From Promethearchaeota archaeon (GTDB taxonomy: Archaea > Asgardarchaeota > Lokiarchaeia > Sigyniarchaeales > SOKP01): 32,000 nucleotides of DNA. How positions within the stretch are numbered: position 1 is the stretch's first letter; each line of letters opens with the position of its first letter. This document shows, piece after piece, positions 1,500 to 30,631 of the stretch. The stretch lies in contig JAUWGH010000013.1 of the NCBI GenBank assembly GCA_030606485.1, forward strand, positions 1-32,000. Direction: 5' to 3'. Under the pieces are notes generated by a model. The model searched no databases and had not been told where the DNA came from. It worked only from the letters and a program-made list of their open reading frames with translations. A program made the position numbers and the translations under genes.

Positions 1500-1964
1500 T
1501 TGTTGTTAGATAAAGATAAATTAAGAAATGTTGTTGGTTGGAAAAATGCTCCTGTCCCAATTTGTATGGGAGGAGATTATAGATCTTTAACATTCTGTTG
1601 TAAGCCAGGATATTCACTTACTTTTGGATTTAAGTGTTTGAGAGAGCATACATTAAAAGAAGTAGGACTAACTCCTGAAGAATTTATGAAAATTAAAAAA
1701 CAATTTTCTAAAGATAATAACTGGGATTCGGATATTGTTTGTTTTGGATCGATTAGTTATTGTTGCATGCGAGCAGGTGGATGTGAACGTAGGGATCTTG
1801 CGCTTTCCTTAAAGTATCCTAATATGGATTGGAATAAAGTAATGGAAACTTATTTTAAAAAGAAAAAAGAACTTGCAGAAATTATATTAAAACATATTAC
1901 TAATCCTACTGCCCGAAGAAGAATAAATAAAATAATGGAAGAATATCAAATTATTGAACTATGA
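1500..1964 (+). CDS. Methanogenesis marker domain 9 (COG4008/TIGR03277-like) Cys-rich protein
   Basis: GWKNAPVPICMGGDYRSLTFCCKP...C and CFGSISYCC...C give 8 Cys (C22, 33, 34, 46, 81, 88, 89, 95) in two [FY]CC repeats, matching the family pattern GW..AP..IC.GGD.R.L.FCC / CFGS..[WY]CC. TTG start. Confidence 0.85.
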   Translation: MLLDKDKLRNVVGWKNAPVPICMGGDYRSLTFCCKPGYSLTFGFKCLREHTLKEVGLTPEEFMKIKKQFSKDNNWDSDIVCFGSISYCCMRAGGCERRDLALSLKYPNMDWNKVMETYFKKKKELAEIILKHITNPTARRRINKIMEEYQIIEL

Positions 1965-2912: not shown

Positions 2913-3539
2913 CTAATCAATACTAATATTTTTAGTTTTTCCCGTAATTTTATTAAGCTTAATTTCTAAAATACCGTTTTGATATCGAGCACGTGCGTGA
3001 TCAGGATCAATAGCATTGGGTAAATTAATATTTTTTTTATATCTTCGTTTATTAATATCCGATTCTGCACTTATTGTTAAGGAATATTCAGTTGCTTTTA
3101 ATTCAATATCGGTTTTCTGAATGCCTGGCATTTCTGCTACAATTATAATATGATCTTCCTCTTCCATAACCTCGGTGAGAGGTTCACGAAAGTTTTTTAC
3201 TATTTCTCTCTTTCCCATTTTTGGTTGAATATTGCCAAATTTTGAAATTTTTGGCTTCCCATCAGGTCCAACAGATAAATTAATGCCATATACAAAAGGA
3301 CCTTGTAAATTAAATTTATCACGATATTTACCGAAGTTCTTCATTAATTCTTCAGGTGTAAATTTACTGAGATTAGAGAAGCCTTTCGTTTGTCTCAAAA
3401 AATCCTTCATAATTTTATTGATAATGTTCTTAAAAAAATTTGAATCACCTAGAGATTTAAAATCGCCCCAGAAATCGCCCCATTCATCACTTTGGTCAAA
3501 ATTCTCGTCATCTTCTTCATCATTATTTTTCTTACTCAT
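2913..3539 (-). CDS. hsp20: Archaeal small heat shock protein Hsp20
   Basis: GPFVYGINLSVGPDGKPKISKFGN...REPLTEV...IVAEMPGI...A.YQNGILEI alpha-crystallin domain. AGGTGG Shine-Dalgarno upstream. Confidence 0.95.
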   Translation of the reverse strand: MSKKNNDEEDDENFDQSDEWGDFWGDFKSLGDSNFFKNIINKIMKDFLRQTKGFSNLSKFTPEELMKNFGKYRDKFNLQGPFVYGINLSVGPDGKPKISKFGNIQPKMGKREIVKNFREPLTEVMEEEDHIIIVAEMPGIQKTDIELKATEYSLTISAESDINKRRYKKNINLPNAIDPDHARARYQNGILEIKLNKITGKTKNISID

Positions 3540-3607
3540 AACATTTCCACCTTTTTTATCCGAATTCTATTAACATAAATTTAATAACGATTATTTAAAT
3601 TAAACAA

Positions 3608-3646
3608 TTATATATAAGAAAGGAATGGCTAATAAATATATATTTA
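3608..3646. promoter_or_regulatory. Two palindromic TATA-like elements in the divergent hsp20/ATPase promoter
   Basis: TTATATATAA (3608-3617) and TAAATATATATTTA (3633-3646) are both self-complementary, so readable on either strand. The AT-rich background weakens the call. Confidence 0.45.
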
Positions 3647-3702
3647 ATCAATTATATCTTTTAAGTTAAAATTTTTAATTAAAAAATAAAAGCGAAATTA
3701 CC

Positions 3703-5649
3703 ATGCTTAAAGATATTAGCGAAGATGAAAAGGAATTATATTTAGATGTCTTAAGAGAAGGAACTTTTACTCCTTTTGATAAATTTGTATCTCGCGGAGA
3801 TTTACCTGATGTAATTGATATTGCAAATCCAAGAAAAGAGATTGACAAAAATATTTTCCGAGCAATAAAACAAACAAATAGAGATAAATCAACTAGACTA
3901 ATCCCGATTTTAGGTAGCGCCGGAAGTGGAAAAACTCACGCATTTTGGGCTTATAAAGATAAAATTGGGCAAGTGGAAGAATTTGAAGTAGAAGGCTTAG
4001 AACCTATAAATTGGACAATTGTATACGTTCCCTCGCCTCCAGCAAGCGTTAGAGTATTATTTCATATTTATACATGTATTATAGAAGAATTAGGAGCAGA
4101 AGTTATAAAAACTGTTTCAGAAAAATTAGTAACCAAGTGGGGTGGAAAGAAAAGAGGATTTTTCAGTAGACCTAAAGCTGATGATGTTATTTCGCGTGGA
4201 ATAAGAGAATTTCCGGGTGTTGGTGCTGATATTGTCAAAGCATTAGTCTATTTTCGTTTAGAAAAAGATAAAAGAGCGTTTGCTGAACGCTGGTTACTTG
4301 GGGAAGATCTTGAAGATGATGAATTAGATGATTTAGGAATAAATAGTGTAATCGAGGATGATGACACTTGTTTGGCAATGATAAAAATAATTACAGAAAA
4401 TTTGGGAAAAGTAATTGTATTGTATTTTGATGAGATCGAATCTCCTTATAGGATGCATGGAGAGCTTGCTGAAAGGAAATTCTTAGAAGTATTAAAAAAG
4501 CAATATAATGAAGTTCAAAAATTAGTTATAGTGATTGCAGTTCTGAAAGAAATATGGCCACGTATATTGGAGATTGCCGACCAACCATTACGTTCTCGAA
4601 TGGAACCCGAACAAGAACTCAAACCATTTAGTTTAAATGATTTAAAACTTTTCTTTGCAAATACTATGGAGCATTATTGGGACCAGAATAATTTAAATCC
4701 ACCCCTATATCCGCTTTTTCCATTAAATGAGGAAGTAATAAATGTAATTTATGAAAAATCAGGGGGAAATCCAAGGGATGCAATTAAATTGTGCAATAGA
4801 TTTATTAATAAAATGATTAATAGGGAGATGTCTCTTGAAGAATTATCTTCACTGGAGGTAGATATTGTGGCTACAGCTCAACCTCCTTCAATCTCTGCAG
4901 ATACAGCAATAATTTCATCTAAAGTATCAGCAGCTCGTAAAAAAATTGAAGAAATATTTGACACCGAATATCTCATTAAAGTTAATCCAGCCTCAATAGC
5001 AGGAGCTGCGTTAAAAAGTATTATTGACTTAGGAGAAGTGAATAAAAAGGATTTTAATTATGAAATGGAATATAAATTTAAAATCGAGAAACGAGAATAC
5101 ACTATTGCTGCAATGATTGAATTCGGTATGAAAAAGTGGGGTTTGGAAATTCCATCTATAAAAACATTTGATCGAAGTGGAGGAGTGGCAGCATATTATG
5201 CTGCAAAAAGATTAAATGATGCTATTATTAATGGAGCAATAACGAATGGAATTTTAATTGTCCCTAGGGGAACAGCAGGGAAGAAATTTTCTTTAATTCT
5301 TGAAAGGGCACATGAAATTGTTAAGTTTGAGATAAATGATGAAGAAGGGGAGGAATTAATTCGTTCTGCTATGCGATATCCATCAAGGATTGGTTGGGAA
5401 ATGGCAAAAACAACATTCGAGCAAATTGAAGATTATTCTCCTCCAGAAGAGGAGAGTCTAACCGATACAATGGAGGAAAGATCTAAAATTGAAGAAGATT
5501 TCATCGAAATTAAGGATACTCCAACCGAAATCAAGGAGGATATGGTTAAAGAAACTCAAGAAGATAGTCTTGAAGAAGAAATAGAAGAAGAAAGTGGAGA
5601 ATCTATAGAAAACATTGAAGATAATAAAGATTTAGATGAACTTTTTTAG
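3703..5649 (+). CDS. AAA+ P-loop ATPase (BREX BrxC/BrxD/DUF2791-like) with C-terminal restriction-endonuclease-like domain and acidic tail
   Basis: Walker A GSAGSGKT, Walker B VLYFDEIE, R-finger PLRSRM, sensor-2 GGNPR, helical insert AERWLLGEDL. The last ~73 aa are very rich in Glu/Asp. Confidence 0.75.
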   Translation: MLKDISEDEKELYLDVLREGTFTPFDKFVSRGDLPDVIDIANPRKEIDKNIFRAIKQTNRDKSTRLIPILGSAGSGKTHAFWAYKDKIGQVEEFEVEGLEPINWTIVYVPSPPASVRVLFHIYTCIIEELGAEVIKTVSEKLVTKWGGKKRGFFSRPKADDVISRGIREFPGVGADIVKALVYFRLEKDKRAFAERWLLGEDLEDDELDDLGINSVIEDDDTCLAMIKIITENLGKVIVLYFDEIESPYRMHGELAERKFLEVLKKQYNEVQKLVIVIAVLKEIWPRILEIADQPLRSRMEPEQELKPFSLNDLKLFFANTMEHYWDQNNLNPPLYPLFPLNEEVINVIYEKSGGNPRDAIKLCNRFINKMINREMSLEELSSLEVDIVATAQPPSISADTAIISSKVSAARKKIEEIFDTEYLIKVNPASIAGAALKSIIDLGEVNKKDFNYEMEYKFKIEKREYTIAAMIEFGMKKWGLEIPSIKTFDRSGGVAAYYAAKRLNDAIINGAITNGILIVPRGTAGKKFSLILERAHEIVKFEINDEEGEELIRSAMRYPSRIGWEMAKTTFEQIEDYSPPEEESLTDTMEERSKIEEDFIEIKDTPTEIKEDMVKETQEDSLEEEIEEESGESIENIEDNKDLDELF

Positions 5650-6552
5650 CAAATTTTTAATTATCTCATCATTTTGTCTTATATTTTCAGAAAGGTTAGA
5701 GCATTTTTTACACAAATTAATTAATTCATTTAAATCTGTAATAATTAAATCATCATCGAGTTTTTCAGAGAGTTCTACAGCCTTATTGATGTGTTCTATC
5801 GCTTGTAAATAATATCCATCCTTTTTAAAATCAATTTCACTTAAGATATATTTTAAATTCTTATAAGCTTCATCTCGTTCCCTTAAATAAGTTGGATAAT
5901 TTTCAGCAGTTTTTGCCTTTTCCTCTAATACTTTATGAATTTCAAGTTCTTCTATTTTTTTTGCCAGTTCTGCTGCTTTTACATAATGTTTTTTAGCATT
6001 TTTATAATCCTGAGATTTAAATAATTCTTCCGCAATTTTAACTGATTGAGCAATCTCATCAGGAATGATCTCACCCAAATCAATTAAATTTCTTGCTTCT
6101 TGGATCCTTTCCTCATCCAGAAGATCCTTTATTCGTTCGTTAAGTTTTTCTCTAATTAATTTCGGTTCTTTTAATTTCTCATTTAATTCTATTCTTGAAT
6201 GGATAATCTCTTTTAAAAGGGATTTTAATTTTTCTTTATCTTTTGAAAAATTTTCCACGATTTTTACTTCAATTTCATCAAAAACTGCTATAAAAGAGTC
6301 AATAAATTCCCCGGATTTTGTAATTAAACCTAAATACAATGATAATTTTTCATCTAATTTAATTTCTTTTGAATAATATTTCAAATCATCCTGTGTATAA
6401 GTGACATAGTTCAAATCTGATTTTTTTAAATGATTATCGCCTAAGTTTTTTAAGATCTCTTTAGTTATTCCTATCTCCTTAATATAATATTCTGCCAAAA
6501 GATTAGGACCAAATGATTCGTCTATTTCATATAAAAAAATTCCAAGGGGCAT
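5632..6552 (-). CDS. Longin/uDENN-like N-terminal domain plus TPR-like helical region
   Basis: N-terminus GIFLYEIDESFGPNLLAEY (beta-beta-GP pattern of longin-like/uDENN domains), then helical repeats such as AEELFKSQDYKNAKKHYVKAAELA. Its 3' end overlaps the ATPase by 18 bp. Confidence 0.6.
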   Translation of the reverse strand: MPLGIFLYEIDESFGPNLLAEYYIKEIGITKEILKNLGDNHLKKSDLNYVTYTQDDLKYYSKEIKLDEKLSLYLGLITKSGEFIDSFIAVFDEIEVKIVENFSKDKEKLKSLLKEIIHSRIELNEKLKEPKLIREKLNERIKDLLDEERIQEARNLIDLGEIIPDEIAQSVKIAEELFKSQDYKNAKKHYVKAAELAKKIEELEIHKVLEEKAKTAENYPTYLRERDEAYKNLKYILSEIDFKKDGYYLQAIEHINKAVELSEKLDDDLIITDLNELINLCKKCSNLSENIRQNDEIIKNLLKKFI

Positions 6553-6568
6553 TTTTAAAAATTCACAT

Positions 6569-6595
6569 CTATTCTTTCTTGTTATCTTTTTTCAT
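6569..6595 (-). pseudogene. Possible 8-codon remnant of a HEPN (DUF86/HepT) toxin gene
   Basis: An ATG overlaps the MNT stop (ATGA) and reads MKKDNKKE*. This position and an MKKD start are typical of DUF86 partners, but the match is very short. Confidence 0.35.
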
Positions 6596-6897
6596 AAAAT
6601 AATCATTTGCTCTTTTAAAATACTTTCTTTAAGAGAAGGGTGTATAGATTTATATGTAAGAACATCTACTTTACACTTTAATAGTTCCTGAAGTTCTAAT
6701 TTTAAAGCAGCAAGATCTAATAAGCTCTTTCTTCCCTCAAATTCAATTAATAAATCTATGTCGCTTTTATCTGAAGCTTCTCCTCTCACAATTGACCCAA
6801 ATAAAGACGCTTTTTTGACATTGTATTGTTTAAGGACATTCAAGATTTTCCCTTTAATATTTTCGATTTTATGAGACAATTTTTTAATCTCACTCAT
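6592..6897 (-). CDS. mntA: Minimal nucleotidyltransferase (MNT) antitoxin
   Basis: LFGSIVRGEASDKSDIDLLIEF (GS...DxD) and KVDVLT motifs, 101 aa. Confidence 0.92.
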   Translation of the reverse strand: MSEIKKLSHKIENIKGKILNVLKQYNVKKASLFGSIVRGEASDKSDIDLLIEFEGRKSLLDLAALKLELQELLKCKVDVLTYKSIHPSLKESILKEQMIIL

Positions 6898-9533: not shown

Positions 9534-11390
9534 TTAATGATCCTGCAATAAATGTTGAAGATATCGTTGAGCAATCAGGTCTGAACTAACTTTACCTAAA
9601 ACCTTTCCTTCTTTAACAACTGGTATAGCTGAAATTTGATATTGTTCAAACTCTCGTACAATATCTAGAATAGTAAAATCTGGAGAGGCTGTAATAACAT
9701 CCTTTGTCATTATTTTATCAAGATTAACATCACCAACTTCATCAGCATTAGATTTAGTAATATCCCATACAGTTACCACTCCTACAAGCTTATCTTCAGA
9801 AAGTACAGCAATAATACTGCTATTTTTTTCAATGATCAATGTAGAAGCCTCTTGTATATTGCTATTAACATCAATGGTTGGTATTGGAATCATGATATCT
9901 TTCGCTGTGCGCTCACTTTCTTTTGCGGTGAGACGTTGAAGGCTGATACGCTCAGCGGCTACACAAGGGAGCATATCTGGGTGTGATACTAATAAATCAA
10001 CCAATTCTATCATGTTATTATGAATAACATTTTCTCTATATTCCTCTCCTGCTTTCAAACGTTGTTTTGAAAGTTCAACAAATTCTTTAGTGTGATCTGT
10101 TAGCCATTTTTCCACTGCTTCACGATCACCTAACATTTCCTCGGGAACTTGTAAATAGTCTGGTGTCTTTACAATATGTTCTTGCGCAGCAAAAATTACA
10201 CCACCTGAATTTACCAAATAATCATTTGCTATCATTACTCCCTTTTCACGATACACAATTTGTTCCATGCGGGTCCGAGCAGCTTTTCTATTTGGATCTG
10301 GGGAGTAAGTATTTGCGCCTTCAATAATTACTGTCCAGTTTCCCACATGATCAACTGTTGTTGATGCATTTTCAGATGGATGAACACCCAGATAATTAAA
10401 TATAGGAGCGGCAGGCACTAAACAAAAAGCATTTTCAAGAAGTAAATTATTTGAATTTGTAGAAAATTTAGTAGGATGCTTATATCCCTCCAATATTATA
10501 TTTTCTTTAAAATAAGCATTAGTAACTAACCTCTGTTCTCTCCATAATTTGAAAAGGTCCTCAATTGGAAGGCCAGATTTATTATATAAATAACCCTCCA
10601 AATCACTTATACCTATTATTTTGGCTTCAGGAATCCGCTCTTTCAAAATACGTGCTGCATGTGCGCCAACAGCACCAAAACCTTGTATTAATATTTCAAG
10701 ATCTTTAGATTCTGGAATTTCTAAATTTACAAATTGTGGAAGCACTCTCAACCTGGGCATTATTTCCAGTAATGTCTGCAGAGCAATTATTACACCCCCA
10801 GCAGCAGCTCCAAGTTCATCAATTCTGTTGCCACCCATATCAGCAGGTTTAGATACAGCAAAATCCAATCCATTTTCTATAGCAATAGTCTTCATATCAG
10901 CATCATTAGTACCAACATCAGGTCCCGGCACATAAACATCTCGATAACGGCGAATTAAGCGAGCAATGCCTCGTACCACTTCAACATGTTCCTCAGGTGA
11001 GAGATTGCTTTCAGCTACAATCCCTAATTTTCCACCGCCATAGGGAAGATTAGCAGCTCCATTTTTTAAAGTCATACCTCGCGCTAAATTATAAATATCA
11101 GAGGGACTAACATCCGGCAACATTCTAATACCACCCATTGACGGGCGCCCCATTGAAAGGTTATCAACTACTAAATACCCACCAATTTCTAATTCTGATC
11201 TCTCATCCCATATACATGCAACAAGATCCGGACCAATTTTATCGCAAACAATTCCTATGCTGGATAAAAGATGTTCATCTGTATGACTAAATTCCAAATA
11301 ACATTTCCCATCCTCTTTTTTAAGCCGATTCATAATAGCTGCCTTCGGAAGATGAGAACGAAGATAAGCGTCCATTTTTTTTGGAATCAT
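9534..11390 (-). CDS. Glu/Leu/Phe/Val amino-acid dehydrogenase fused to a C-terminal CBS pair
   Basis: GGIRM, MTLKN, GGGK, GPDVGT, GFGAVG, EGAN and NSGGV motifs. C-terminal AKDIMIP...LVGVVTVWDI and KIMTKDVIT...VLGKVSSDLI are CBS repeats. Confidence 0.9.
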   Translation of the reverse strand: MIPKKMDAYLRSHLPKAAIMNRLKKEDGKCYLEFSHTDEHLLSSIGIVCDKIGPDLVACIWDERSELEIGGYLVVDNLSMGRPSMGGIRMLPDVSPSDIYNLARGMTLKNGAANLPYGGGKLGIVAESNLSPEEHVEVVRGIARLIRRYRDVYVPGPDVGTNDADMKTIAIENGLDFAVSKPADMGGNRIDELGAAAGGVIIALQTLLEIMPRLRVLPQFVNLEIPESKDLEILIQGFGAVGAHAARILKERIPEAKIIGISDLEGYLYNKSGLPIEDLFKLWREQRLVTNAYFKENIILEGYKHPTKFSTNSNNLLLENAFCLVPAAPIFNYLGVHPSENASTTVDHVGNWTVIIEGANTYSPDPNRKAARTRMEQIVYREKGVMIANDYLVNSGGVIFAAQEHIVKTPDYLQVPEEMLGDREAVEKWLTDHTKEFVELSKQRLKAGEEYRENVIHNNMIELVDLLVSHPDMLPCVAAERISLQRLTAKESERTAKDIMIPIPTIDVNSNIQEASTLIIEKNSSIIAVLSEDKLVGVVTVWDITKSNADEVGDVNLDKIMTKDVITASPDFTILDIVREFEQYQISAIPVVKEGKVLGKVSSDLIAQRYLQHLLQDH

Positions 11391-11739: not shown

Positions 11740-12966
11740 TTATATTTTTGTAGCAATGTAATCAATGATATCTAATACTTTCATATTTGTTTTTTCTTTT
11801 TTTACACTATCTGCTAAATTTCCAACGCAAAATGGACATTCTGTAAGCAATATATCTATACCAGACTCAACTGCCTCATCAATCCTATCTTTTGCAATAT
11901 CCAAAGCTAATTCAGGAAATTGACTTTTTACTCCACCTCCAGCGCCGCAACACCAGGCATTATTTCTATTTCGCCTTAATTCAATCATTTCTGTATTTGG
12001 TATTTTCACAATAACTTCTCGAGGTGGCTCGTAAAAATCCATATGCCGACCTAAATGACAAGGGTCATGATAGGCAACTTTTATTGCTTCTATATCCTTT
12101 TCAGGAATTTTTAAACTTCCATCGTTGATTAGATCTAAGAGAACTTCTGTAACATTAACAACTTCAAAAGGCAAATCTTGACCGAATATTTCAGGCCAGT
12201 CCTTTTTTAAAGTCCTATAACATCCTGCACATGCTACAAATACCTTTTTTGCACCAGTTTTTTTAATTTGCTCAAGATTGTGCTCAATATTCGGCTTTAC
12301 AGATTCAATATCACCAATACGTATTGCAATAGAACCACAACACCATTCATCTTCTATAACAGCAAATTCTTTTCCTGCCGAATTAAAAATTTTGGCTAGA
12401 TTTAATAAGGTTTCCTTTTGTCTTAGAGGTTCAGTACAGCCAGCATAAAAAGTGATATCCCCCATTTTAGAAACACCTTTAACATCATTGAGCCACTCAA
12501 ACTTTTTCGCTTTAGGTTCACCATAAGGATTTCGCATATCCGGATTATTCATATATTCAATTAATTTGGCATGTCGATCCAATGGTGCAAAACCTGCTTT
12601 AATTAAATCTTGCCTTAAAGCATGCCATACCTCTACATGATCAATCCATTTTGAAGTATTTAGAACAATATATGGATTATGCGTTTCATGACACGTGTCT
12701 GTACATGAACCGCATTCAGAACATTGATAAGCAAATTCTGCCAGCTCCTTACTCAAATCGAGGTTTCCTTCTAAAATACTTTTAAGAACATTCATTCTAC
12801 CTCGGGCAAACCAAATTTCAAAACCTTCTTCTCCTTTTGCTTCTTTTACAGGACAAACTAAATATCTCCCCACCGCTGGTCTTACGGCAAAACCACAATC
12901 ACCACACCCCATGCAGGACATTATGGCTTCCCATTGTTTTTTTAAATTTTCTATTTTGCTCATCAT
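11740..12966 (-). CDS. HdrD/GlpC-like Fe-S oxidoreductase (4Fe-4S dicluster plus 2 CCG domains)
   Basis: CMGCGDC...CP, CSECGSCTDTC, AGC...WCCGS...CAGC and HDPCH...WCCGAGGG...ECPFC motifs. Confidence 0.92.
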   Translation of the reverse strand: MMSKIENLKKQWEAIMSCMGCGDCGFAVRPAVGRYLVCPVKEAKGEEGFEIWFARGRMNVLKSILEGNLDLSKELAEFAYQCSECGSCTDTCHETHNPYIVLNTSKWIDHVEVWHALRQDLIKAGFAPLDRHAKLIEYMNNPDMRNPYGEPKAKKFEWLNDVKGVSKMGDITFYAGCTEPLRQKETLLNLAKIFNSAGKEFAVIEDEWCCGSIAIRIGDIESVKPNIEHNLEQIKKTGAKKVFVACAGCYRTLKKDWPEIFGQDLPFEVVNVTEVLLDLINDGSLKIPEKDIEAIKVAYHDPCHLGRHMDFYEPPREVIVKIPNTEMIELRRNRNNAWCCGAGGGVKSQFPELALDIAKDRIDEAVESGIDILLTECPFCVGNLADSVKKEKTNMKVLDIIDYIATKI

Positions 12967-14481
12967 TTAATCATCCTCCCAAAAATTAAATTTCCCACGA
13001 CTTAAAATCATGTGTGGATCGAGGGTTTTTTTAATAGATTTCATAAGGTTATAATATTCAGAAGTATAGGCGCCAATTTCAACCATAAGACGAGAGGGAA
13101 TGCTACCCATCATATAAAATTGGACTCCATGTTTTAAAACCAAGGTTAAAAATGATTTCCATAATTTAAGATTGATATCTTTGATAATTTCATGGTATTC
13201 TCCATCATGATAACAACCAAAAGTGGTAAATCCGCAAGTTAATTCTACATTATTACCATCAACCAATGGAACAACTCCAGTTCCACTAATTGGACGAAAT
13301 CCCGCTATTTTCTCGATTTTTTTCATGTTTTCTTCATTTTCCATATCCCATACTTCGATATCTTTGAGAATTTTAGGAAAAGAATTTATTGGTGTAAAGC
13401 ATTCCGTGGTAATATTTTCAAAAGCAGGTATAATCCCCCAGCAATTATGATATGTCTGCCATTGTCCTTCGGTATAGTGCCATTTGGCAAAATTCCCATT
13501 AGACATTTCTGGACCTAAATCTTCACACTTTTTATTCAAAAAAATTTTATCTAGTTGTTTTACTTTTTCTTCTAATTCTTGTTCAGAATTTGCTTCTACG
13601 ACATAAAAGACTATACCCCTTTTTCTTTTTAGATGCTCAAACATTGGATACATTCCGAATGTATTAGTGCCAAGTTTTATGAGGATTTCATCAATATACA
13701 TGGCGTCATAAACATCTATTCCTTTTTGTCTTATTTCAGTATAAATTTGAGCAACAACGTCAGCTGAATTCCGCGGACACAAGAATGTTTTATAATTCGC
13801 AAAGGGAGGTTTTGGAAATACTTGTAAGGAAACCTTAGTTTTAACACCATAAATTCCGTTATCTCCACAAAATAGTCCTGCCAGATCAGGCCCGTTGCCA
13901 AATCTGTTGAAGGGAAACTTTGAAAATTTATTTGCTTGAGATCCTGTCTCAATTATTTCACCTGTGGGAAGGACTACTTCCAAAGAGACGAGTTGGTTTG
14001 TGCAAGCTCCATATTTAGCGCACCCACCAGCACCCACAGAGTGATGAGAGATTCCACCACCAATTGAAGCAGTTAAACCACTTCCTGGACCCATACAACC
14101 AGTATAAAGTCCAAACCGAGATAAATATTCATTTAATTTTCCCCATGAAATTCCAGCCTCTACCGTGCAAATAAGATTCTCTTCATCGAGATTCACGACA
14201 TTATCCATTCTTTTCATATCTAAGATAATTCCAACATCTCCAGTTGCTATACTTCCTCCCCATTCACAATCTCCACCACCACGTGGTATAACGGGAATAT
14301 TTTCTTCATTGGCCACTTTTAGGATTTCTGATATTTCCTTAGCATCTTTTGGTCTAACTACATATTCTGGAACGCCTTGTAAATCCGGATGTACATTACG
14401 ACTGTAAGCATGGCGCACGTAAATATCATCGGAAGCAAATTTTTGAGAAACAATATTTTGTAATTTTTGTATTAAAGTCAT
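12967..14481 (-). CDS. FAD-binding oxidoreductase, VAO/PCMH superfamily (GlcD/D-lactate dehydrogenase-like)
   Basis: VVRP...IPVIPRGGG, ILDMKRM, VEAG, LEVVLPTGEII, GPDL.GLF and terminal KKTLDPHMILSRGK motifs. Abuts the Fe-S gene. Confidence 0.92.
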   Translation of the reverse strand: MTLIQKLQNIVSQKFASDDIYVRHAYSRNVHPDLQGVPEYVVRPKDAKEISEILKVANEENIPVIPRGGGDCEWGGSIATGDVGIILDMKRMDNVVNLDEENLICTVEAGISWGKLNEYLSRFGLYTGCMGPGSGLTASIGGGISHHSVGAGGCAKYGACTNQLVSLEVVLPTGEIIETGSQANKFSKFPFNRFGNGPDLAGLFCGDNGIYGVKTKVSLQVFPKPPFANYKTFLCPRNSADVVAQIYTEIRQKGIDVYDAMYIDEILIKLGTNTFGMYPMFEHLKRKRGIVFYVVEANSEQELEEKVKQLDKIFLNKKCEDLGPEMSNGNFAKWHYTEGQWQTYHNCWGIIPAFENITTECFTPINSFPKILKDIEVWDMENEENMKKIEKIAGFRPISGTGVVPLVDGNNVELTCGFTTFGCYHDGEYHEIIKDINLKLWKSFLTLVLKHGVQFYMMGSIPSRLMVEIGAYTSEYYNLMKSIKKTLDPHMILSRGKFNFWEDD

Positions 14482-21341: not shown

Positions 21342-22022
21342 ATGGTAAGAATTGAAGAGGATGGCCGAATACACATAAAAGTTTTATACTGGGGAATGGC
21401 TGGTTCTGGTAAAACTACTATTGTAGATACTTTACATCGTCTTACAAAAGAACAAAAATTAGATATGACACCCAAGGGAGAATTAAAAAAAATAGATATG
21501 GCAAATGGTTCTACTTTATACTTTGATAGAGGGATTTTTCAATCCACAAAAACCCCTAAGATTTTTTACCATATTTATACAGTTGCAGGTCAAACTCAAT
21601 TCTCTCCGTTAAGAAAGACGGTATTCGAAGGAACAGATGGAGTACTTTTCGTTGTGGATTCTCAAACTTTTCTTTTTGAAGATAATATTGAATCATTAAA
21701 AGAATTAAAAAAAGTAGCTCAAGGAGATTTAATAAAAGAAATTCCCATGGTTGTAATGCTTAATAAGAAGGACTTAGATGAAACAATTGGTGCCAGTGAA
21801 TTTGAGCATATTTTAAAAGAAGAAGGATTATGGTATTCTCCCCCTAATAAATTATCTCTATGGAATCCTATTATTTTTGAGACTTGTGCATTATATGATT
21901 TAAAAAGGGATATATATCGGAGTTTTTATGAATGTGCTAGAAGAACAGCACTATATCACATATATGGAAATGGAACCGCACCTATTGATGATGAATTTTT
22001 AAAAAAGTATGATAAAAAATAA
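21342..22022 (+). CDS. MglA-like (Arf/Sar-related) small GTPase
   Basis: G1 GMAGSGKTT, G2 STLYFD, MglA-type G3 YTVAGQ, DGVLFVVDSQ, G4 NKKD, G5 TCA. Confidence 0.88.
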   Translation: MVRIEEDGRIHIKVLYWGMAGSGKTTIVDTLHRLTKEQKLDMTPKGELKKIDMANGSTLYFDRGIFQSTKTPKIFYHIYTVAGQTQFSPLRKTVFEGTDGVLFVVDSQTFLFEDNIESLKELKKVAQGDLIKEIPMVVMLNKKDLDETIGASEFEHILKEEGLWYSPPNKLSLWNPIIFETCALYDLKRDIYRSFYECARRTALYHIYGNGTAPIDDEFLKKYDKK

Positions 22023-23151: not shown

Positions 23152-24642
23152 ATGAGTTACAAAAAACCTGATAATAAAGATTTGGAGGCTATGATTGGGA
23201 TTGTAGGTAAAAATTACGCAACCGCAAACGATGCAATCTGTGCGTCCTATCTTAGTAAAAGCGTTATGGGACTCGAGGCTCAAATCCCTGACATCGTTAT
23301 TCGTCCAAAATACCCTGAAGAAATTAGAAAAATTCTTGTCTATTGTTCTCAAGAGAAGATTCCAGTGTCGCCCATATCTGGAGGATTATCTGGAGGGTTC
23401 GCATGCCCATTAATAAGACCCGGAGGCGTTGTATTAGATTTAAGTAGAATGGATCGTATAATAGAAATTGATACCGAAAATAGAATTGCAATAATTGAAC
23501 CCGGAGTAACACTCGGTCAATTATGGGCATATATGCATAAGCACACCCCAGAATATTGCCCTCCCATTCCCGATGGAGCTCCTCCTTCATCAACCGTTAT
23601 GGGAGATGCAATTGATAGAGGGTTCTCTTTAGTCACCTCATCCATGGGGCCTCAAGGAGATATATTCATGTGCGCAGAAGTAGTCATTCCAAGAGGTGAT
23701 ATACTCTATACAGGTTCGTGGGCTCTCCCTACAGCAAAACCATTTTATAAATATGGTATAGGACCAGATCTGTGGTCTACCTTAATGGGCTCACAAGGAA
23801 CTATGGGGGTCATCACAAAAGTAGCAATTAAAATCTTTCCCCATCCAGAACATAAGACTGTTGTGGTTTGGGGCATGAGTAACCCACAGGATATGCAAAA
23901 TTTAACATGGCAAATTGGAAATCAAGAATTTGGAATTGCACATCACTGTGTTATGGTTCAAGGTGGAAATTATCCACTTGTAATGACGCGCTGGCCTAAA
24001 GAGAAAGTTCCTCATGATTACGAATTTTACAAAGAAATTGGATTTTCTAAGTGGTGGATGAATTTTGAAGTCTGGGCACAAACTCAAGAAGAATTAGAAT
24101 ATACTGAAAAAAGAATCGATGAATTTGCTAAAAAATTTATGGAATCTAAAGAATGCAAAGATCCGAAATCTATAAAAAAACAAGAATTACATCCAAAACA
24201 AATTGCCAGTAGATTAAAGAAACCTAACAAAATTGCAATTCCATATGGCTACTGGGAAGCTGGATTTCTCTTCATAACCTGGTATACGCCATGGAAAGAT
24301 TGTGCGGAATTTGCTGAAATGTACACTAAGGTCCTTGAAGATCATGGTATTGCACCGGTAATGTGGATTGCAAGCGTTGAAAGATGTAGACAAGCTATTT
24401 GTATGCCAATAATTTGCTTTGACTCAACGAAACAAGAAGATTTTGAAAAAGTACAAGAAATTAATCGTATCACCACTGAATATTCCATTAAAAGAGGTTG
24501 GTTAAATTATCGACCGGATCCTTACATCCATGCACCAATGATGTATTCTCAAGCAGGTACATATTTGAAATATTTAAGAGAGGTTAAGAAAATGTTTGAT
24601 CCTAATTTTATAATGCATCCAGGGAGGTTAATGCTTCCATAA
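23152..24642 (+). CDS. FAD-binding oxidoreductase, VAO/PCMH superfamily (PchF-like features)
   Basis: VVLDLSRMDRIIEID, IEPGVTLGQL, GDAIDRG, YKYGIGPD, GWLNYR and KMFDPNFIMHPGR motifs. Confidence 0.9.
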   Translation: MSYKKPDNKDLEAMIGIVGKNYATANDAICASYLSKSVMGLEAQIPDIVIRPKYPEEIRKILVYCSQEKIPVSPISGGLSGGFACPLIRPGGVVLDLSRMDRIIEIDTENRIAIIEPGVTLGQLWAYMHKHTPEYCPPIPDGAPPSSTVMGDAIDRGFSLVTSSMGPQGDIFMCAEVVIPRGDILYTGSWALPTAKPFYKYGIGPDLWSTLMGSQGTMGVITKVAIKIFPHPEHKTVVVWGMSNPQDMQNLTWQIGNQEFGIAHHCVMVQGGNYPLVMTRWPKEKVPHDYEFYKEIGFSKWWMNFEVWAQTQEELEYTEKRIDEFAKKFMESKECKDPKSIKKQELHPKQIASRLKKPNKIAIPYGYWEAGFLFITWYTPWKDCAEFAEMYTKVLEDHGIAPVMWIASVERCRQAICMPIICFDSTKQEDFEKVQEINRITTEYSIKRGWLNYRPDPYIHAPMMYSQAGTYLKYLREVKKMFDPNFIMHPGRLMLP

Positions 24643-24668
24643 ATGGAAGGAAAAGGAGGTTAATAGAT

Positions 24669-25976
24669 ATGGAAAGATTAGAAGTAATGAAAAAAGAACT
24701 TTATCGTTGTATTCATTGCAAGGCGTGTAAATTTACATATAGTGGAGATCCAAGCAGAGATGGAGTAGGAGAACATAAAGGAGTCCTATATGAAGGCATG
24801 GTTCCGAGCTGTCCAAGTGGTTTAGAATATGGCTGGGAGAGTTTTTGGAATGCCGGAAGAATGTGGATTGCTCGTTGTATTTTGGAAGGAGATTTAGAGT
24901 TTTCGGAAAATGTCCGTGATACGATAATGCAATGCATAACTTGTGGGATGTGTGAAGTCCAGTGTGAAAATAAGGTTCCATGCGTTGATATTATTGAATC
25001 ATTACGGGCAGCTTGTTATTTTTCTGGAGTGCCTCTTATCGAGAAACACGAATTAGTCTCAAAATTCGTAGTAGAAAGAAATAATCCTTATGGTGGAGAT
25101 AAAGACAAAAGATTTGAATGGGTAAAAGAAAATGGGCTTGAAGAATACTTAGACAAAAAAGGTGCCAAAATTGCTTATTATGTAGGTTGCACTGCAAGTT
25201 ATAGGCAAATAAATATTGCGGTCGCTACTTGTAAAATTTTTAAAAGATTAGGTATTGATTTTGCGTTGGTCACAAAAGAAGTTTGCTGCGGTAGCCCATT
25301 CTTTAGGATTGGAAGAACCGATATTTCGCAAGATTTAATGAATACAAACCTTGAACTTTTTAAAAAATATGAAATGGTTTTATTTTCTTGCGCTGGCTGC
25401 TATCGAACCTTTACAGTGGACTATCCGAAATGGATTAAAAAAGAATTACCCTTTAAAACAAATCATGCTTTTGAGTTAATTTCAGATATGGTGAAAGATG
25501 GAAAAATTAAATTTAAAGAAAATCCAGAATTAAGAGGAAAAGTAGTCACATATCACGATCCTTGCCATACTGGTCGTCATTTTTTCATTGATGCTCAGAG
25601 AAAAATTATTGATGAGTCTAAGAATTTAATATTTGACTTAAGAAAGATTAATAAATGGAAAGAGGAATGGTTTGAGAAGCCTAGAATCATAATTCGTGCA
25701 TTACCCGGTGTTAAATTTAAGGAGATGTACAGAATTCATGAGAATTCGTTCTGTTGTGGAGCAGGTGGTGGAGTTAGAGCGGGATATCCTGATTTCAGTT
25801 TAAAAACAGCAAGTTTAAGGCTTGATGAAGCTGAAGCCGTTGGTGCTGATATTATGTTAACGGAGTGTCCATTCTGTTGGAGGAATCTAGATGATGCAAA
25901 CACAATGTTCAATCACGGCATACCAGTTTATGGCATTTTAGAATTAATTGACAAATATGATTTAATTGCAGATTAA
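24669..25976 (+). CDS. HdrD/GlpC-like Fe-S oxidoreductase (4Fe-4S dicluster plus 2 CCG domains)
   Basis: CIHCKAC...CP, CITCGMCEVQC, VGC...CCGSP...CAGC and HDPCH...CCGAGGG...ECPFC motifs. GGAGG SD upstream. Confidence 0.92.
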   Translation: MERLEVMKKELYRCIHCKACKFTYSGDPSRDGVGEHKGVLYEGMVPSCPSGLEYGWESFWNAGRMWIARCILEGDLEFSENVRDTIMQCITCGMCEVQCENKVPCVDIIESLRAACYFSGVPLIEKHELVSKFVVERNNPYGGDKDKRFEWVKENGLEEYLDKKGAKIAYYVGCTASYRQINIAVATCKIFKRLGIDFALVTKEVCCGSPFFRIGRTDISQDLMNTNLELFKKYEMVLFSCAGCYRTFTVDYPKWIKKELPFKTNHAFELISDMVKDGKIKFKENPELRGKVVTYHDPCHTGRHFFIDAQRKIIDESKNLIFDLRKINKWKEEWFEKPRIIIRALPGVKFKEMYRIHENSFCCGAGGGVRAGYPDFSLKTASLRLDEAEAVGADIMLTECPFCWRNLDDANTMFNHGIPVYGILELIDKYDLIAD

Positions 25977-26200: not shown

Positions 26201-29200
26201 TTGGTTGAGCACAAAAACATGGCAGAGGTAAAAGATAATTCAGCATATCCGTATGTATCGGTATTCAAAAAGAAACCTTTTAGGTCATTTACTTTTGCCA
26301 TAGAGGAAGATATAGGGAATTTTTTTATACCAGATTATAATAAGATCGTAGAATTTTACAGATATTTTGAAAAAAATTTATTAAATTTTAAAAATCTGAA
26401 TTTAGAGAATATATATTGGTTTCTTTTATTGGGGAAATATTTGAGGGAAGATATATCCATAAATCTCAAAAAGATCATTAATTTCATAACAGGATGTGAA
26501 ATTTTTGAAGAAAATTCCCTAGGATTTAAGTTCTCTCCTGAATCTAAACAGAGAAAACCCGATAATTGGTCAACCTTTTTTGCTTTAGCCAGTTTAAATT
26601 TATTAGGACAATTAGATGCTTATTTGTCTACACATCCAAGAGAAAATATAAAAGAAAAGATTATTAATTTTATTTTTAAGACCAGAGATAAAGGGCGTTT
26701 TGTTCATTGTTTAAACAAAAATTGTACAATTTGCCAAAAAACAACGCCTATTAGAACAAGTTTTTTCGTAATAGAAGCATTAATTCTTCTAGATTTTGAT
26801 ATCAAATTACAACAAAATGTGTTTTTAAAATATTTTAATGATTTAAAAAAGAAATATTCTATAATATTTCAATTACTGAGTCTTAAATATTTTGATTTAA
26901 TTTCTGATATCGAGACTAAACACTTAAAATATTTACACCAATTTCAACAAAATGATGGTGGTTTTAGTTTTAAGGAAAATATTGGAAAAATTAATGAAAC
27001 ATTTTGGATTATTTATGTTTTGGAAAACTATTCCTGGTTGCTTGATTACAATCGTGGAAGGATTTATTCTTTTCTCTCAACGAAAATCAAAGGCTTAAAT
27101 CATGATTATAATTCATTTAATACCTTGAAATTGATGGATATTTCGAAAATTATTTTAATGTGCTCATTTATTTGGTCTAAATTTATTGAAGAAGTTGAGA
27201 GAACCGCTTTTAGACATTTGGATATAAATACTTCTTTAGACTTAAATATTTTGAAAAAAGAGTTAGGAATAAATGAGGGAATACCAGAAATTCTTAGATA
27301 TATTAATCAGAAATATAACTTTAATTTAGAGATTTTAGATAATGAAATTGAATTTAATAATTATTTAAGAAATTTAACTCGAGAAAATGCATATTTAGCT
27401 AAATCAGTATATGCGTCGATAAAAAATAATAGCGTCATCTATTTAAATAAACTTCTGAATGACTATAAATACAATTACCCAAATAAGTCAAAAAAAATTA
27501 GGGATTTGATCCTTCTAATAGAAGATTTAATTTCGCACAACTTTTTCCAAGGTCGAATTCTTCGGAAAAACATGATTTTTTTTAGTAAATATTATTTATA
27601 TAAAGACAAATTTATTTATGAAGTAATTAGAATTGATTCTGATATAAATAGCGAAGAAATAATTAATGAAAAATTTAAATTGGAGGAAATCAAAACAGAT
27701 ATTTATAATATTATAATTAAATTAAAAGATACGCCAAAAAAGATTAAAGAAGAGATTAAAAGCCTAATACTTGTAAATGAATTCGACTTAGCAAAAGAAA
27801 GGTTAAAATATAATGTTAAAAATGCTTTAATGGAAGCCGATTTTTTAAATGAAAATATTGAAAATTCCTTTTCTACAGATTTTAAATACATAAATCCAAA
27901 TTATCAGTTATCTAATGAGATAGTAGAATGGAACAAGAATTATTCGGAAATTCGAGGCAAGTATTTTAATTTACAAAATTATTTTAATGAAATTTTCAAG
28001 GAAAAAGAAAATTTAAAAAATTTCAAATTAATTTTGAATAAATTGGAAGACATAATTGACAAAAATGAACAAAAGATCTATTCTTTAATTGATCACTTTA
28101 AAAACTTATTTAGAGAATCCCTAGAGAAATCATATTCCAATGAAATTGTCCAACAATTATTAAAAGTATGCGAACATCTTAATTCAGAAATTATGAAATT
28201 AGATACGCAAATCTATGAAATATCACATAAAATTACTTCTAAAGAAAAATCCATTCAAAAAGTGCAAAAGAAGGTCATCTCAAAATGGATATCAATTAAA
28301 GAAGATGCAGATACGTTTATTGATTATTTCCTAGAAGGATTTAAGATTTATGAAAATGATAAAAATGAAATGAATGAAATAGAACAAAGTACTTCTATGA
28401 TGATTAATGAACTCAAAAACACAGTTGATTTAATTTTAAAAGAAAAGAAATATCAACTGGCACTGGAAATTATTGAAGAGAAAACTGAGAAGCATTTAAA
28501 TGAAAAATTAGAATTAGTTAAAAATTCTCAATCGAAGTTAAAGGAAAATATGAAGAGTAAGAGAAAACTTTTTCTACTTCTAAAAAAAATTCAAGAGGAT
28601 TGGAATAATTTAGAGCAAAAAATAATTGCGAAAATTGATAATTATCGAAATTCTATTGAAGAGAAAGTTATTCAAGAACGCGAACTTGAGAAATTAAAAG
28701 AATTTGACTATTTTATAAAAAGCAATATTTCTATTTTAAAAGAACAAATAAGAAAGAAAGAAAATGAATGTGAGAAAGATTTAAATTATCAAAAACTTAA
28801 AATCAACAATTTAAAATCTCGAATTGATAAACTTTCTAAAGAGTATTCAGATCTCAACGAAAAAGTTAAAAATAAAGTAAAACAACTTACTAAAATTGTA
28901 GTGGATTTTCAAGAGAAATCAAAGTTATGTATGTTATCATGGAATAAATTCCTAGATCTATTTAAAAATAATTTGAATGATTTAAAAAATAAATATACAA
29001 ACGAAATTATTAAACAAGAGATTCTGTCAACTAGCTCACAATCAAAAACAAATCTCATAAAACTAGATGATTTAAAGAAAAAATTGAATCTTAAATGTAA
29101 TGTTTTAATAGAAAGAATTAATGAAATGATAGAAATTACAAAATTAGACGGAGAATTGGATGAAAATGACAAAGAACTTCTTGTTCACACTGATGATTAT

Positions 29201-30631
29201 TATAAGAATAAACAATTGCGAAATTTTATTGAAAAACAAATAGAGAAATTAGGAAATGATTTCGGAAAATTAGTATCTCTATATGAATCTGCAATAAAAA
29301 ATAAATCTCTTAAAGTTAATATTTTAGAAATTCAAAATAGAATAGAAGATTTTAATACACGGCAATTAAATTTAGAAAGAAGTTACCAAAATGAAATTTT
29401 AAAAATTGGTATAAATATAAATAGAGATGATTTCTTAGCGAATAGAAATTTTTTCAATACTGAACTTAATAGATATAGAGATATTATTGATGAAATTAAC
29501 AAAAATACAATACTTTTTAATCAACTTATTAATTTCATCGGTGGAGTATTCAACTCTCTAAGAATCCAATTACGGGAATTAAATAAATCCTTTCAAGATG
29601 AAGCTGAAAAAATAAATGATTATGAGAAACTTTTAAATAATTTTAGCGGAAAAATCTTGAAATTATCTGAAACTATGAGAGTTTCTTTCAATAAAAATGA
29701 GCAAGAAATTAGCACCACGATGATCCAGAATGAAAGTTTAAAAATATTAAATTCTGAAATTCGAGAAGAGCTCGTTTTTAATAAAAATTTATTTAATAAA
29801 GAATTTGAAGAATTTAAGGAAAATGTATCAAAAAAATTAAACTTGATTAAAAATGACGCTTTAAAAGAGAATTTAATGCATTTTATAAATAGAAACCAGG
29901 TTCTACTTAATCAAATGCTAGGATCCTTAGAACGAAAAGTTGAAGATAAATTAGAAATTAAAGATTTTAAATCTACAAGTATTATGGTTCAAAGAAGGGT
30001 TAAGAAAATACGTGAAAAATTAAAATATATTGAAAATGAAACATCTAAACTTAAAAAAGAATTCAAAAAAGCATCTCCTACATTCAATACAAAAAATAAA
30101 TTTCTTTTTGATGATTTCAAACATTTTCTGCATGAGTATGATGAGATAATTAATGAGAAAATTAAAAAATTAGAGCAATTAATTCTAAAAAGCTATGTTG
30201 AAATTGTTATTAAAGCGGTAAAAGACGAATATATAACAATATCTTTTTTGGCGCACGAACTAAAAAATAAAAAAGATAAGATTCAAACATATATTATAAA
30301 TATGATTGGTGCTAATGAATTACCTGGAAAATATGACCCTGAACTTCAGATTTATTTTGAAAATCTTGAGATTATTGATAATCTAAACCCGGCTCAGCTA
30401 AAAGTAATTAAAACTACTAATTTTAAACTCTATGAATTTCTTAACCGGTTACGTTTTTTTACCAGTCAATATAGTTCCATACTTACTTTTATTGCCGCAA
30501 TTTTCACAATAACATTATCCCTTTATAATTTATCTGGGGGAAATCCATTAACAGTAATAATTCCTCTCTCTATTGCGATATTAATTACCTTATATCTTTT
30601 ATTAAGAAAGCAAAAAGAAGAGAAAATATGA
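26201..30631 (+). CDS. Giant protein: prenyltransferase-beta/squalene-cyclase-like repeats, PCI-like winged helices, coiled coils and C-terminal 2-TM anchor
   Basis: Repeats IINFITGC...GFKFSP...STFFALASLNLLG and LHQFQQNDGGF...ETFWIIYVL; wHTH-like LIEDLISHNFFQGRI, INEMIEITKLDGELD and IINMIGANELPGKYD; long K/E/N/L-rich helical stretches; hydrophobic hairpin at aa ~1427-1467. Likely start is ATG 26219. Confidence 0.7.
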   Translation: MVEHKNMAEVKDNSAYPYVSVFKKKPFRSFTFAIEEDIGNFFIPDYNKIVEFYRYFEKNLLNFKNLNLENIYWFLLLGKYLREDISINLKKIINFITGCEIFEENSLGFKFSPESKQRKPDNWSTFFALASLNLLGQLDAYLSTHPRENIKEKIINFIFKTRDKGRFVHCLNKNCTICQKTTPIRTSFFVIEALILLDFDIKLQQNVFLKYFNDLKKKYSIIFQLLSLKYFDLISDIETKHLKYLHQFQQNDGGFSFKENIGKINETFWIIYVLENYSWLLDYNRGRIYSFLSTKIKGLNHDYNSFNTLKLMDISKIILMCSFIWSKFIEEVERTAFRHLDINTSLDLNILKKELGINEGIPEILRYINQKYNFNLEILDNEIEFNNYLRNLTRENAYLAKSVYASIKNNSVIYLNKLLNDYKYNYPNKSKKIRDLILLIEDLISHNFFQGRILRKNMIFFSKYYLYKDKFIYEVIRIDSDINSEEIINEKFKLEEIKTDIYNIIIKLKDTPKKIKEEIKSLILVNEFDLAKERLKYNVKNALMEADFLNENIENSFSTDFKYINPNYQLSNEIVEWNKNYSEIRGKYFNLQNYFNEIFKEKENLKNFKLILNKLEDIIDKNEQKIYSLIDHFKNLFRESLEKSYSNEIVQQLLKVCEHLNSEIMKLDTQIYEISHKITSKEKSIQKVQKKVISKWISIKEDADTFIDYFLEGFKIYENDKNEMNEIEQSTSMMINELKNTVDLILKEKKYQLALEIIEEKTEKHLNEKLELVKNSQSKLKENMKSKRKLFLLLKKIQEDWNNLEQKIIAKIDNYRNSIEEKVIQERELEKLKEFDYFIKSNISILKEQIRKKENECEKDLNYQKLKINNLKSRIDKLSKEYSDLNEKVKNKVKQLTKIVVDFQEKSKLCMLSWNKFLDLFKNNLNDLKNKYTNEIIKQEILSTSSQSKTNLIKLDDLKKKLNLKCNVLIERINEMIEITKLDGELDENDKELLVHTDDYYKNKQLRNFIEKQIEKLGNDFGKLVSLYESAIKNKSLKVNILEIQNRIEDFNTRQLNLERSYQNEILKIGININRDDFLANRNFFNTELNRYRDIIDEINKNTILFNQLINFIGGVFNSLRIQLRELNKSFQDEAEKINDYEKLLNNFSGKILKLSETMRVSFNKNEQEISTTMIQNESLKILNSEIREELVFNKNLFNKEFEEFKENVSKKLNLIKNDALKENLMHFINRNQVLLNQMLGSLERKVEDKLEIKDFKSTSIMVQRRVKKIREKLKYIENETSKLKKEFKKASPTFNTKNKFLFDDFKHFLHEYDEIINEKIKKLEQLILKSYVEIVIKAVKDEYITISFLAHELKNKKDKIQTYIINMIGANELPGKYDPELQIYFENLEIIDNLNPAQLKVIKTTNFKLYEFLNRLRFFTSQYSSILTFIAAIFTITLSLYNLSGGNPLTVIIPLSIAILITLYLLLRKQKEEKI

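Follow-up and report, generated by a model that had tools for sequence, protein, structure and literature searches.

A small protein with eight cysteines, encoded near the start of the 32,000-nucleotide stretch of archaeal DNA analyzed here (the window), appears to belong to a subfamily related to, but separate from, methanogenesis marker 9, and it is kept in a family of Lokiarchaeia in which no McrA-like gene is found. Methane metabolism, or the loss of it, is read from genomes with the help of “methanogenesis markers”, of which marker 9 is one. The presence of a marker-9-like protein in Lokiarchaeia is already recorded in public annotation, and the sighting itself is not new. What is added here is a quantified absence of Mcr in the host’s family, an apparent split into subfamilies marked by two insertions, a facultative operon with a DHH phosphoesterase gene, single-module relatives in other Asgard classes, and a confident fold model without a solved counterpart.

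The gene and its eight-cysteine protein

The gene, the parts of its product, and its downstream neighbor are located in the window as follows.

1500–1964, + strand: marker-9-like gene of the Lokiarchaeia type, 154 aa, TTG start and TGA stop (open reading frame list and translation)
1536–1895, + strand: match to the TIGR03277 profile, residues 13–132 aligned to profile positions 1–109 of 109 (NCBIfam hmmscan)
1563–1637, + strand: module 1 cysteine cluster, C22-x10-C33C34-x11-C46 (alignments, repeat test)
1740–1784, + strand: module 2 cysteine cluster, C81-x6-C88C89-x5-C95 (alignments, repeat test)
1961–2902, + strand: DHH/DHHA1 phosphoesterase gene, 313 aa (Pfam DHH, E 9e-10), whose start overlaps the marker-9-like stop by 4 nt

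The marker-9-like gene is present as a single copy in the host genome, where a genome-wide profile search recovers it at the same place. No ATG lies upstream of the conserved N-terminus, and homologues are 148–158 aa long, from which we infer that the TTG start is a reasonable call. Homologues of the window protein number 492; the best 120 of the 492 are 148–180 aa long and 58–99% identical to it.

The protein contains exactly eight cysteines (C22, C33, C34, C46, C81, C88, C89, and C95). A preliminary description, made from the DNA letters, had read them as a two-fold internal repeat, and this holds: when profiles of residues 19–74 and 78–133 are compared with hhalign, the two modules are homologous with a probability of 98.5% (E 1.6e-15), and the motifs C...FCC...C and C...YCC...C stand as they were first given. 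In each module, the Cys4 unit, C...[FY]CC...C, leads into R-[DE] and a short helix; a conserved Gly then precedes another helix, which bears E-E-[FY]-x2-[IL]-K. The hairpin that ends each module follows the pattern L-x3-G-[LIM]-[ST]-x-E-E-[FY]-x2-[IL]-K. All eight cysteines are invariant in an alignment of 20 Lokiarchaeial homologues, and across 49 diverse family members six are invariant and the other two are kept in at least 90%; K66 and R98 are also invariant in this 49-sequence alignment. A proline usually stands directly after the last cysteine of a module in alignments that include canonical sequences. Median identity across Lokiarchaeia is 60.5% for the marker-9-like protein, compared to 42.7% for the DHH protein and 38.9% for orf306, which suggests that the marker-9-like protein is under strong constraint.

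The same description held that both K-P-C tails of the family are remodelled in this protein. Both do differ from the canonical form, but that form is not CCxxKPC as had been stated: the canonical sequences retrieved carry aromatic-CC-x3-K-P-C twice, with five residues between CC and C. In module 1 of the window protein, K-P is kept straight after CC and a six-residue insertion precedes the last cysteine (11 residues instead of 5). In module 2, the CC-x5-C spacing is kept and G-G replaces K-P. A second six-residue insertion, relative to the methanogen proteins, lies in the module 2 hairpin.

Relationship to methanogenesis marker 9

The window protein matches the NCBIfam profile TIGR03277 (methan_mark_9) from end to end (profile 1–109 of 109) with an E value of 5e-23 and 81.4 bits. 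The curated cut-off of this profile, which represents a hypothetical equivalog domain, is 96.2 bits, and the window protein does not reach it. Nor does any of the 301 genomes of the phylum contain a protein above the cut-off, which M. jannaschii and M. acetivorans exceed. All eight cysteines align with the cysteines of the family in its two-repeat arrangement. Of the two aromatic-CC...K-P-C motifs that characterize the family, the aromatic-CC part is kept twice and the K-P-C tails are altered. The family is further defined as found only in methanogens, which does not hold for a protein from a member of the Lokiarchaeia without McrA, McrB, or component A2. No Pfam family matches the window protein at E values up to 10.

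An unrooted IQ-TREE phylogeny of 49 domains (134 columns) sets the Lokiarchaeia type apart from the methanogen type, as a branch with support of 100/96 and a length of 1.12 splits a Lokiarchaeia-type clade from the methanogen-type and “RHH-type” sequences. The window protein is not placed inside the methanogen clade. The Lokiarchaeia-type clade contains Lokiarchaeial and a few metagenomic sequences, an Aenigmarchaeota protein, and three giant ORFs; the eleven Lokiarchaeial sequences are monophyletic (97/94). A recent transfer from methanogens is unsupported, the Lokiarchaeial clade not being nested in a methanogen lineage in this unrooted tree. Because the score lies below the cut-off, the tails are altered and the loops extended by insertions, and the separating branch is long and well supported, the window protein is best regarded as a member of a homologous yet distinct subfamily rather than as a TIGR03277 equivalog. 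The homology to marker 9 that had been proposed from the letters is thus borne out over the whole profile. The term “intact marker 9 domain” is overstated for a protein that falls below the cut-off and in a separate clade.

Methanogen-type marker 9 (TIGR03277/COG4008) stands alone in Methanobacteriales or is fused behind a Dus-like TIM barrel of the MJ0144 family. The window protein is like it in being homologous over 109 positions, in having the same eight cysteines and two-module build, and in its predicted fold (TM 0.61–0.66). It is unlike it in its lower score (81.4 versus 96.2 bits) and its separate clade on a long branch, and the Lokiarchaeial type has lost the K-P-C tails and gained six residues at each of two places, between CC and the last cysteine of module 1 and within the module 2 hairpin. 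The Lokiarchaeial type is also never fused to a Dus-like barrel, its host is no methanogen, and its neighbors are PhnN, DHH, and Hsp20 genes, compared to component A2, Dus-like, and tetrapyrrole genes in methanogens.

Another domain with some likeness is the HdrB-type CCG domain (PF02754), which binds a non-cubane [4Fe-4S] cluster and is likewise a duplicated, cysteine-rich module with tandem CC from anaerobes. The spacing in the window protein differs, and it has no G after CC and no C-x2-C. Kinship to the CCG domain was rejected, the Pfam scan being empty at E values up to 10. Two proteins with a CCG domain (PF02754) lie in the same window.

Many homologues in Promethearchaeota MAGs are named “methanogenesis marker 9 domain-containing protein” by the NCBI pipeline, and JGI names homologues [quoted passage not shown]. 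No function is given for COG4008 or TIGR03277 in the literature found to mention either identifier. Among the markers of Adam et al. 2022 (PMC9635834) is m25, “related to dihydrouridine synthase”, which they list for Lokiarchaeia as a possible remnant; repurposed functions, they state, could not be inferred. Their m25 is probably this marker, though it may instead be the Dus part.

The host and the absence of Mcr

The host genome comprises 3.75 Mb in 13 contigs, with 100% completeness and 4.65% contamination, and the window covers the first 32 kb of its contig 9. The closest loci are 84–90% identical and come from Promethearchaeota/Promethearchaeia MAGs, and the 78 related loci come nearly all from Promethearchaeota/Lokiarchaeia MAGs. 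In addition, the window encodes an Arf/Ras-family small GTPase (21342–22022, +), a eukaryote-signature protein typical of Asgard archaea. The Asgard context suspected at the outset is confirmed by these loci and this GTPase; the contig comes from Lokiarchaeia and not from a canonical methanogen, and the TIGR03277 match is significant. DNA of the host recurs in cold-seep, marine-sediment, and subsurface metagenomes, and no RNA run is listed among the public runs that carry it.

Profile searches of the 100%-complete host genome find neither McrA (TIGR03256) nor McrB (PF02241). The genome likewise has no component A2 over the cut-off and no Dus-like protein of the MJ0144 type; it has an ordinary Dus, and it keeps the H4MPT-pathway enzymes Ftr (178 bits) and Mch (367 bits). 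In the host’s family, a McrA-like gene is found in 0 of 102 genomes and a full-length marker-9 homologue in 62 of 68, so that the protein is near-universal there. A neighboring family has a McrA-like gene in 0 of 10 genomes and a full-length marker-9 homologue in 5 of 7. Three other families of the class, presumably Helarchaeales-like, have McrA-like genes in 7 of 7 genomes sampled (270–560 bits) and a more diverged marker-9 copy in both genomes sampled for it. Within Lokiarchaeia, therefore, the presence of a marker-9-like protein does not track Mcr/Acr.

Two explanations had been offered for a marker-9 domain in such a context. The first, that the host is an Mcr/Acr-bearing, Helarchaeales-like Asgard archaeon, fails because there is no McrA or McrB in the complete genome and no McrA-like gene among the 102 genomes of the family. 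The second, that the domain has a function independent of methanogenesis, is favored because both the host and its family are Mcr-less.

One closed, single-contig genome of 4.4 Mb from the host’s order (G210) has no marker-9 match, and two of the three genomes of its genus do match. Since this genome is closed, the marker-9-like protein is dispensable in at least one lineage.

Distribution and relatives elsewhere

A HMMER search of 1.84 billion cluster representatives with the window protein as query returns only 67 matches. Among these are methanogen proteins in which marker 9 is fused behind the MJ0144-family Dus-like TIM barrel, an Aenigmarchaeota protein of the same subfamily as the Lokiarchaeial ones, and forms with a C-terminal ribbon-helix-helix-like extension, one cluster of which includes a protein from a Thermoprotei MAG. 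The ribbon-helix-helix-like extensions (NikA-like, E 0.0013; RHH_1, E 0.036) and the UBA-like extensions of relatives are sub-threshold matches and are treated only as weak hints. The 1.3-Mb Aenigmarchaeota genome that carries the Lokiarchaeia-type subfamily contains no McrA, and it is among the cases of two DPANN-like contigs on which the marker-9 gene adjoins the genes for ribosomal protein L29 and SUI1. In the genomes and named records covered here, members of the family are found in anaerobe-type lineages only (methanogens, Lokiarchaeia, and sediment MAGs). Some close homologues carry NCBI labels (Thor-, Hod-, Hermod-, and Odinarchaeota) that clash with the GTDB-based sampling; loose labelling is suspected, because the loci so labelled show the Lokiarchaeial gene order.

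A 1.3-Mb MAG labelled Hadesarchaea (G307, locus L085) encodes a marker-9 protein of the Lokiarchaeia type (57% identity) and also has divergent McrA fragments, which score 115–222 bits; this MAG may be a mis-binned or Helarchaeales-like genome. Two metagenome contigs are filled from end to end by giant ORFs of 1650 and 1749 aa (L120:2–4951 and L121:82–5328), which have no in-frame stop compared to 24–170 stops in the other frames. In these ORFs, a Lokiarchaeia-type marker-9 domain lies among ARMT1-like, peptidase M54, GlnD-UTase, and Methyltransf_28 domains.

In other Asgard families, only the second half of the TIGR03277 profile is matched, by ORFs of 200–370 aa that constitute a different family. 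These proteins match profile positions ~61–107 at E values of 1e-12 to 1e-5, have a module of the kind seen in the window protein, C-[YFH]-G-S-L-[AS]-[FY]-C-C-x5-C-x2-R-D and the hairpin, and are 42% identical to module 2 of the window protein over 55 residues. They differ from it in having only one Cys4 module, canonically spaced and with its hairpin, an N-terminal domain of their own, a disordered linker, and a C-terminal zinc ribbon, and the host genome has no orthologue of them. The single-module protein is found in most of the other Asgard families sampled (L122–L141; e.g., L122:5860–6657, +). In 14–16 of 20 loci, its gene is convergent to those of a 339-aa protein and of a 1238-aa family-B DNA polymerase that contains a LAGLIDADG insert, and in some loci genes for a small GTPase and for ESCRT-I-like Vps23/UEV and Vps28 lie alongside.

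Gene neighborhood and the DHH gene

The marker-9-like stop and the DHH start, TGA and ATG, share the four letters ATGA, and the two genes probably form a two-gene operon. A DHH gene lies on the same strand at −4 to 67 nt downstream in 37 of the 78 loci (37–38 in the gene-order listing). The catalytic motifs of the phosphoesterase are invariant in 30 orthologues (D10/D12, D60, D88-H89-H90, D141, and G271-G273-H274, corresponding to DxD, D, DHH, D, and GGGH), and its only solved relative is 6mtz, a weak match (E 2.5e-9). Four of five Lokiarchaeial genomes without this adjacency have no DHH orthologue at all and keep the marker-9-like protein. Because of these genomes, and because the DHH protein is far less conserved, the pairing is real but facultative. 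Prediction of a complex between the DHH and cysteine proteins, with an alignment for each, gave no answer (score 0.00) and counts neither way on whether they bind.

In the usual order of the 78 loci, the marker-9-like gene (+) is preceded by an unknown 252-aa gene (−), a DtxR/IdeR-type regulator (−), and a PhnN-type ribose-1,5-bisphosphokinase (+), and is followed by DHH/DHHA1 (+), PAP2 (−), Hsp20 (−), a 648-aa P-loop NTPase (+), and orf306 (−). The kinase gene mostly lies 107–360 nt upstream, and the regulator stands two genes upstream in 57 of the 78 loci. In the host’s genus, a PAS histidine kinase replaces the upstream part, and the PhnN-type kinase and the regulator are found elsewhere, on contig 8. 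Positions 2913–6552 of the window contain the genes for Hsp20 (2913–3539, −), the P-loop NTPase (3703–5649, +), and orf306 (5632–6552, −), a block that is kept beside the marker-9-like gene in 37–55 of the 78 Lokiarchaeial loci. Apart from a weak match to nSTAND5, no family is recognized in the 648-aa NTPase, which shows ~60% identity throughout the class; orf306 matches no family at all.

In methanogens, three loci place marker 9 in other company. In Methanobacterium (L104:3492–8417), the order is a MJ0144-family Dus-like gene, component A2 (896 bits), marker 9, a siroheme-synthase-like gene, and HemA (glutamyl-tRNA reductase), with marker 9 beginning 2 nt after the A2 stop, so that marker 9 appears tightly linked to MCR activation and tetrapyrrole genes. 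One fused methanogen form adjoins a cluster with CfbE-, CbiX-, CbiA-, and nitrogenase-like (Oxidored_nitro) Pfam matches, which looks like F430 biosynthesis genes, and another lies 1.8 kb from mcrDCGA. No literature on the linkage of marker 9, A2, and tetrapyrrole genes in Methanobacterium was found, and nothing useful on MJ0144.

Predicted structure

An AlphaFold2 model built from a diverse 49-sequence alignment has a pLDDT of 93.4 and a pTM of 0.88. It features an N-terminal β-hairpin, short helices that bear the CC pairs, and four longer helices. An earlier model, built from a shallow alignment of 20 near-identical sequences, had a pLDDT of 60 with the cysteine region unmodelled, and is superseded by this one. 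Compared to four ESM Atlas clusters of methanogen marker 9, the model gives TM scores of 0.61–0.66 and rmsd values of 2.7–3.1, both sides being predictions, and the Lokiarchaeial and methanogen members are thus predicted to have the same fold.

No significant solved counterpart is found by Foldseek against the PDB (best E 1.1), by VIA-align against 48,161 chains (best Z 3.5), or by a PDB sequence-profile search at E values up to 10. The top structural rows (MntR/DtxR, CnrX, Spy, and TetR) were dismissed as generic helical matches rather than kin, and the best score of an ESM Atlas feature search, 0.76, is to a viral cluster and carries no information on kinship. The fold is therefore predicted with confidence and has no solved counterpart in these searches.

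Possible functions of the protein

On balance, we lean toward reading the protein as a two-centre Cys4 metalloprotein that would have a redox or adaptor role and, in this host, no tie to methanogenesis. It is a small soluble protein of two homologous modules, each with a Cys4 site and a hairpin, helix-turn-helix-like, in which R-D, G, and K are conserved, and each module would bind one metal centre. To its partners, the protein would be an adaptor or sensor module, either redox-active or dependent on metal, and its work in the Mcr-less host would be independent of methane or alkane metabolism. It would be co-transcribed with the NrnA-like DHH/DHHA1 phosphoesterase gene here and in about half of Lokiarchaeia. 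Metal binding, the type of metal, the partner, and the cellular role are all points that we infer from sequence.

The cysteines are read as metal ligands because all eight are conserved across deeply diverged cytoplasmic proteins of anaerobes. The centre would probably, with modest confidence, be an Fe-S cluster, while a structural Zn is plausible but less probable. An Fe-S cluster is favored because of the tandem CC, the Cys-Pro with which modules frequently end, the flavin-type TIM barrel of the fused forms, and the anaerobe-type lineages. Tandem cysteines ligate a [4Fe-4S] cluster in assimilatory APS reductase. None of the four arguments is decisive, and sequence cannot separate Zn from Fe-S. 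In methanogens, the Dus-like TIM barrel to which marker 9 is fused is of the FMN type, as would suit an accessory domain for electron transfer or substrate binding, and the hairpins, with their invariant Lys and Arg, would be compatible with binding of nucleic acids or of a partner. The conserved gene order within a single class may reflect inheritance rather than function.

A broader version, which we consider rather doubtful, is that the Cys4-plus-hairpin unit is an ancient, general archaeal metallo-module with an as yet unsolved fold and no device of methanogenesis, which would be doubled in methanogens, Lokiarchaeia, and some DPANN archaea. Most other Asgard classes would have it once, joined to a zinc ribbon and encoded near PolB and ESCRT genes. 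Among Asgard archaea it would then act on nucleotide, RNA, or DNA transactions as an Fe-S switch that responds to oxygen or redox state.

It is unlikely, in our estimate, that the protein is a remnant of ancestral methanogenesis with its biochemical task unchanged, whether on a tetrapyrrole, on an F430-like cofactor, or in a C1/H4MPT step, kept together with the archaeal Wood-Ljungdahl pathway. A remnant would agree with the listing of m25 as perhaps such in Lokiarchaeia by Adam et al. 2022 (PMC9635834), if m25 is not the Dus part, with the three methanogen loci that place marker 9 beside MCR or tetrapyrrole genes, and with the Ftr (178 bits) and Mch (367 bits) of the host, which would be compatible with a C1 or cofactor role passed down by a methanogenic ancestor. 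However, the methanogen neighbors A2, MJ0144-type Dus-like protein, and Mcr are all absent from the host genome; the genes at the Lokiarchaeial locus (PhnN-type kinase, DHH, PAP2, and Hsp20) are unrelated to them; and the same subfamily occurs beside L29 and SUI1 in the 1.3-Mb Aenigmarchaeota genome.

Similarly improbable is a Zn-stabilized nucleic-acid binder, in which the hairpins after the cysteine sites would bind DNA or RNA and the Cys4 sites would be merely structural. The COG4008 label, “predicted metal-binding transcription factor”, is of this kind, and each module has a conserved hairpin, with invariant K66 and R98. Bacterial Dus enzymes have a tRNA-binding helical domain at the place where the methanogen fusion, behind its RNA-modification-type TIM barrel, has marker 9. 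The DtxR/IdeR-type regulator two genes upstream in most loci (57 of 78) and the sub-threshold ribbon-helix-helix matches in the C-terminal extension of some relatives (NikA-like, E 0.0013; RHH_1, E 0.036) point the same way. Yet no DNA- or RNA-binding domain gives a significant fold match (Foldseek E 1.1, VIA Z 3.5), a marker-9 part that is fused to a DNA-binding domain of its own kind would more readily be the sensor than the binder, and mononuclear Zn sites do not usually have a tandem CC pair.

Very unlikely is a two-gene system in which the protein would exist for the adjacent DHH/DHHA1 protein alone, as its regulatory or redox subunit, gating the hydrolysis of nanoRNA, pAp, or cyclic dinucleotides, as would fit the 4-nt overlap, the close same-strand spacing in 37 of 78 loci, the invariant DHH motifs, and the nucleotide-metabolism neighborhood provided by the PhnN-type kinase upstream in most loci, since four of the five non-adjacent genomes keep the cysteine protein with no DHH orthologue, the cysteine protein is far more conserved (60.5% versus 42.7%), and the DPANN and methanogen relatives have no DHH neighbor. 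The two-centre metalloprotein is the reading that we prefer.

Other features of the window

Two pairs of genes for an FAD-linked oxidase and an HdrD-like protein (Fer4_8 and two CCG domains) lie at 11740–14481 (−) and 23152–25976 (+), and resemble a dehydrogenase module of the lactate or glycolate type that has been duplicated. The gene at 9534–11390 (−) encodes a Glu/Leu/Phe/Val dehydrogenase with two CBS domains fused to it, and an MntA-like nucleotidyltransferase antitoxin at 6592–6897 (−) scores 55 bits, just under the cut-off of 60. A 1476-aa ORF (26201–30631, +) occupies the lowest-GC part of the window (23% compared to ~30%) and has only weak matches to a prenyltransferase toroid and a PCI domain. 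Scans of the window for tRNAs and Rfam families are empty.

Implications for the marker and its family

Because the two-module homologue is near-universal in an Mcr-free family and the single-module relative is widespread in Asgard archaea, marker 9 should not be taken as evidence of methanogenesis. Should the Cys4-plus-hairpin unit be an ancient archaeal module, its status as a “marker” would be an artefact of the way genomes were first sampled. Being short, soluble, and extremely conserved, the protein would make a cheap target for the study of the whole family, methanogens included.
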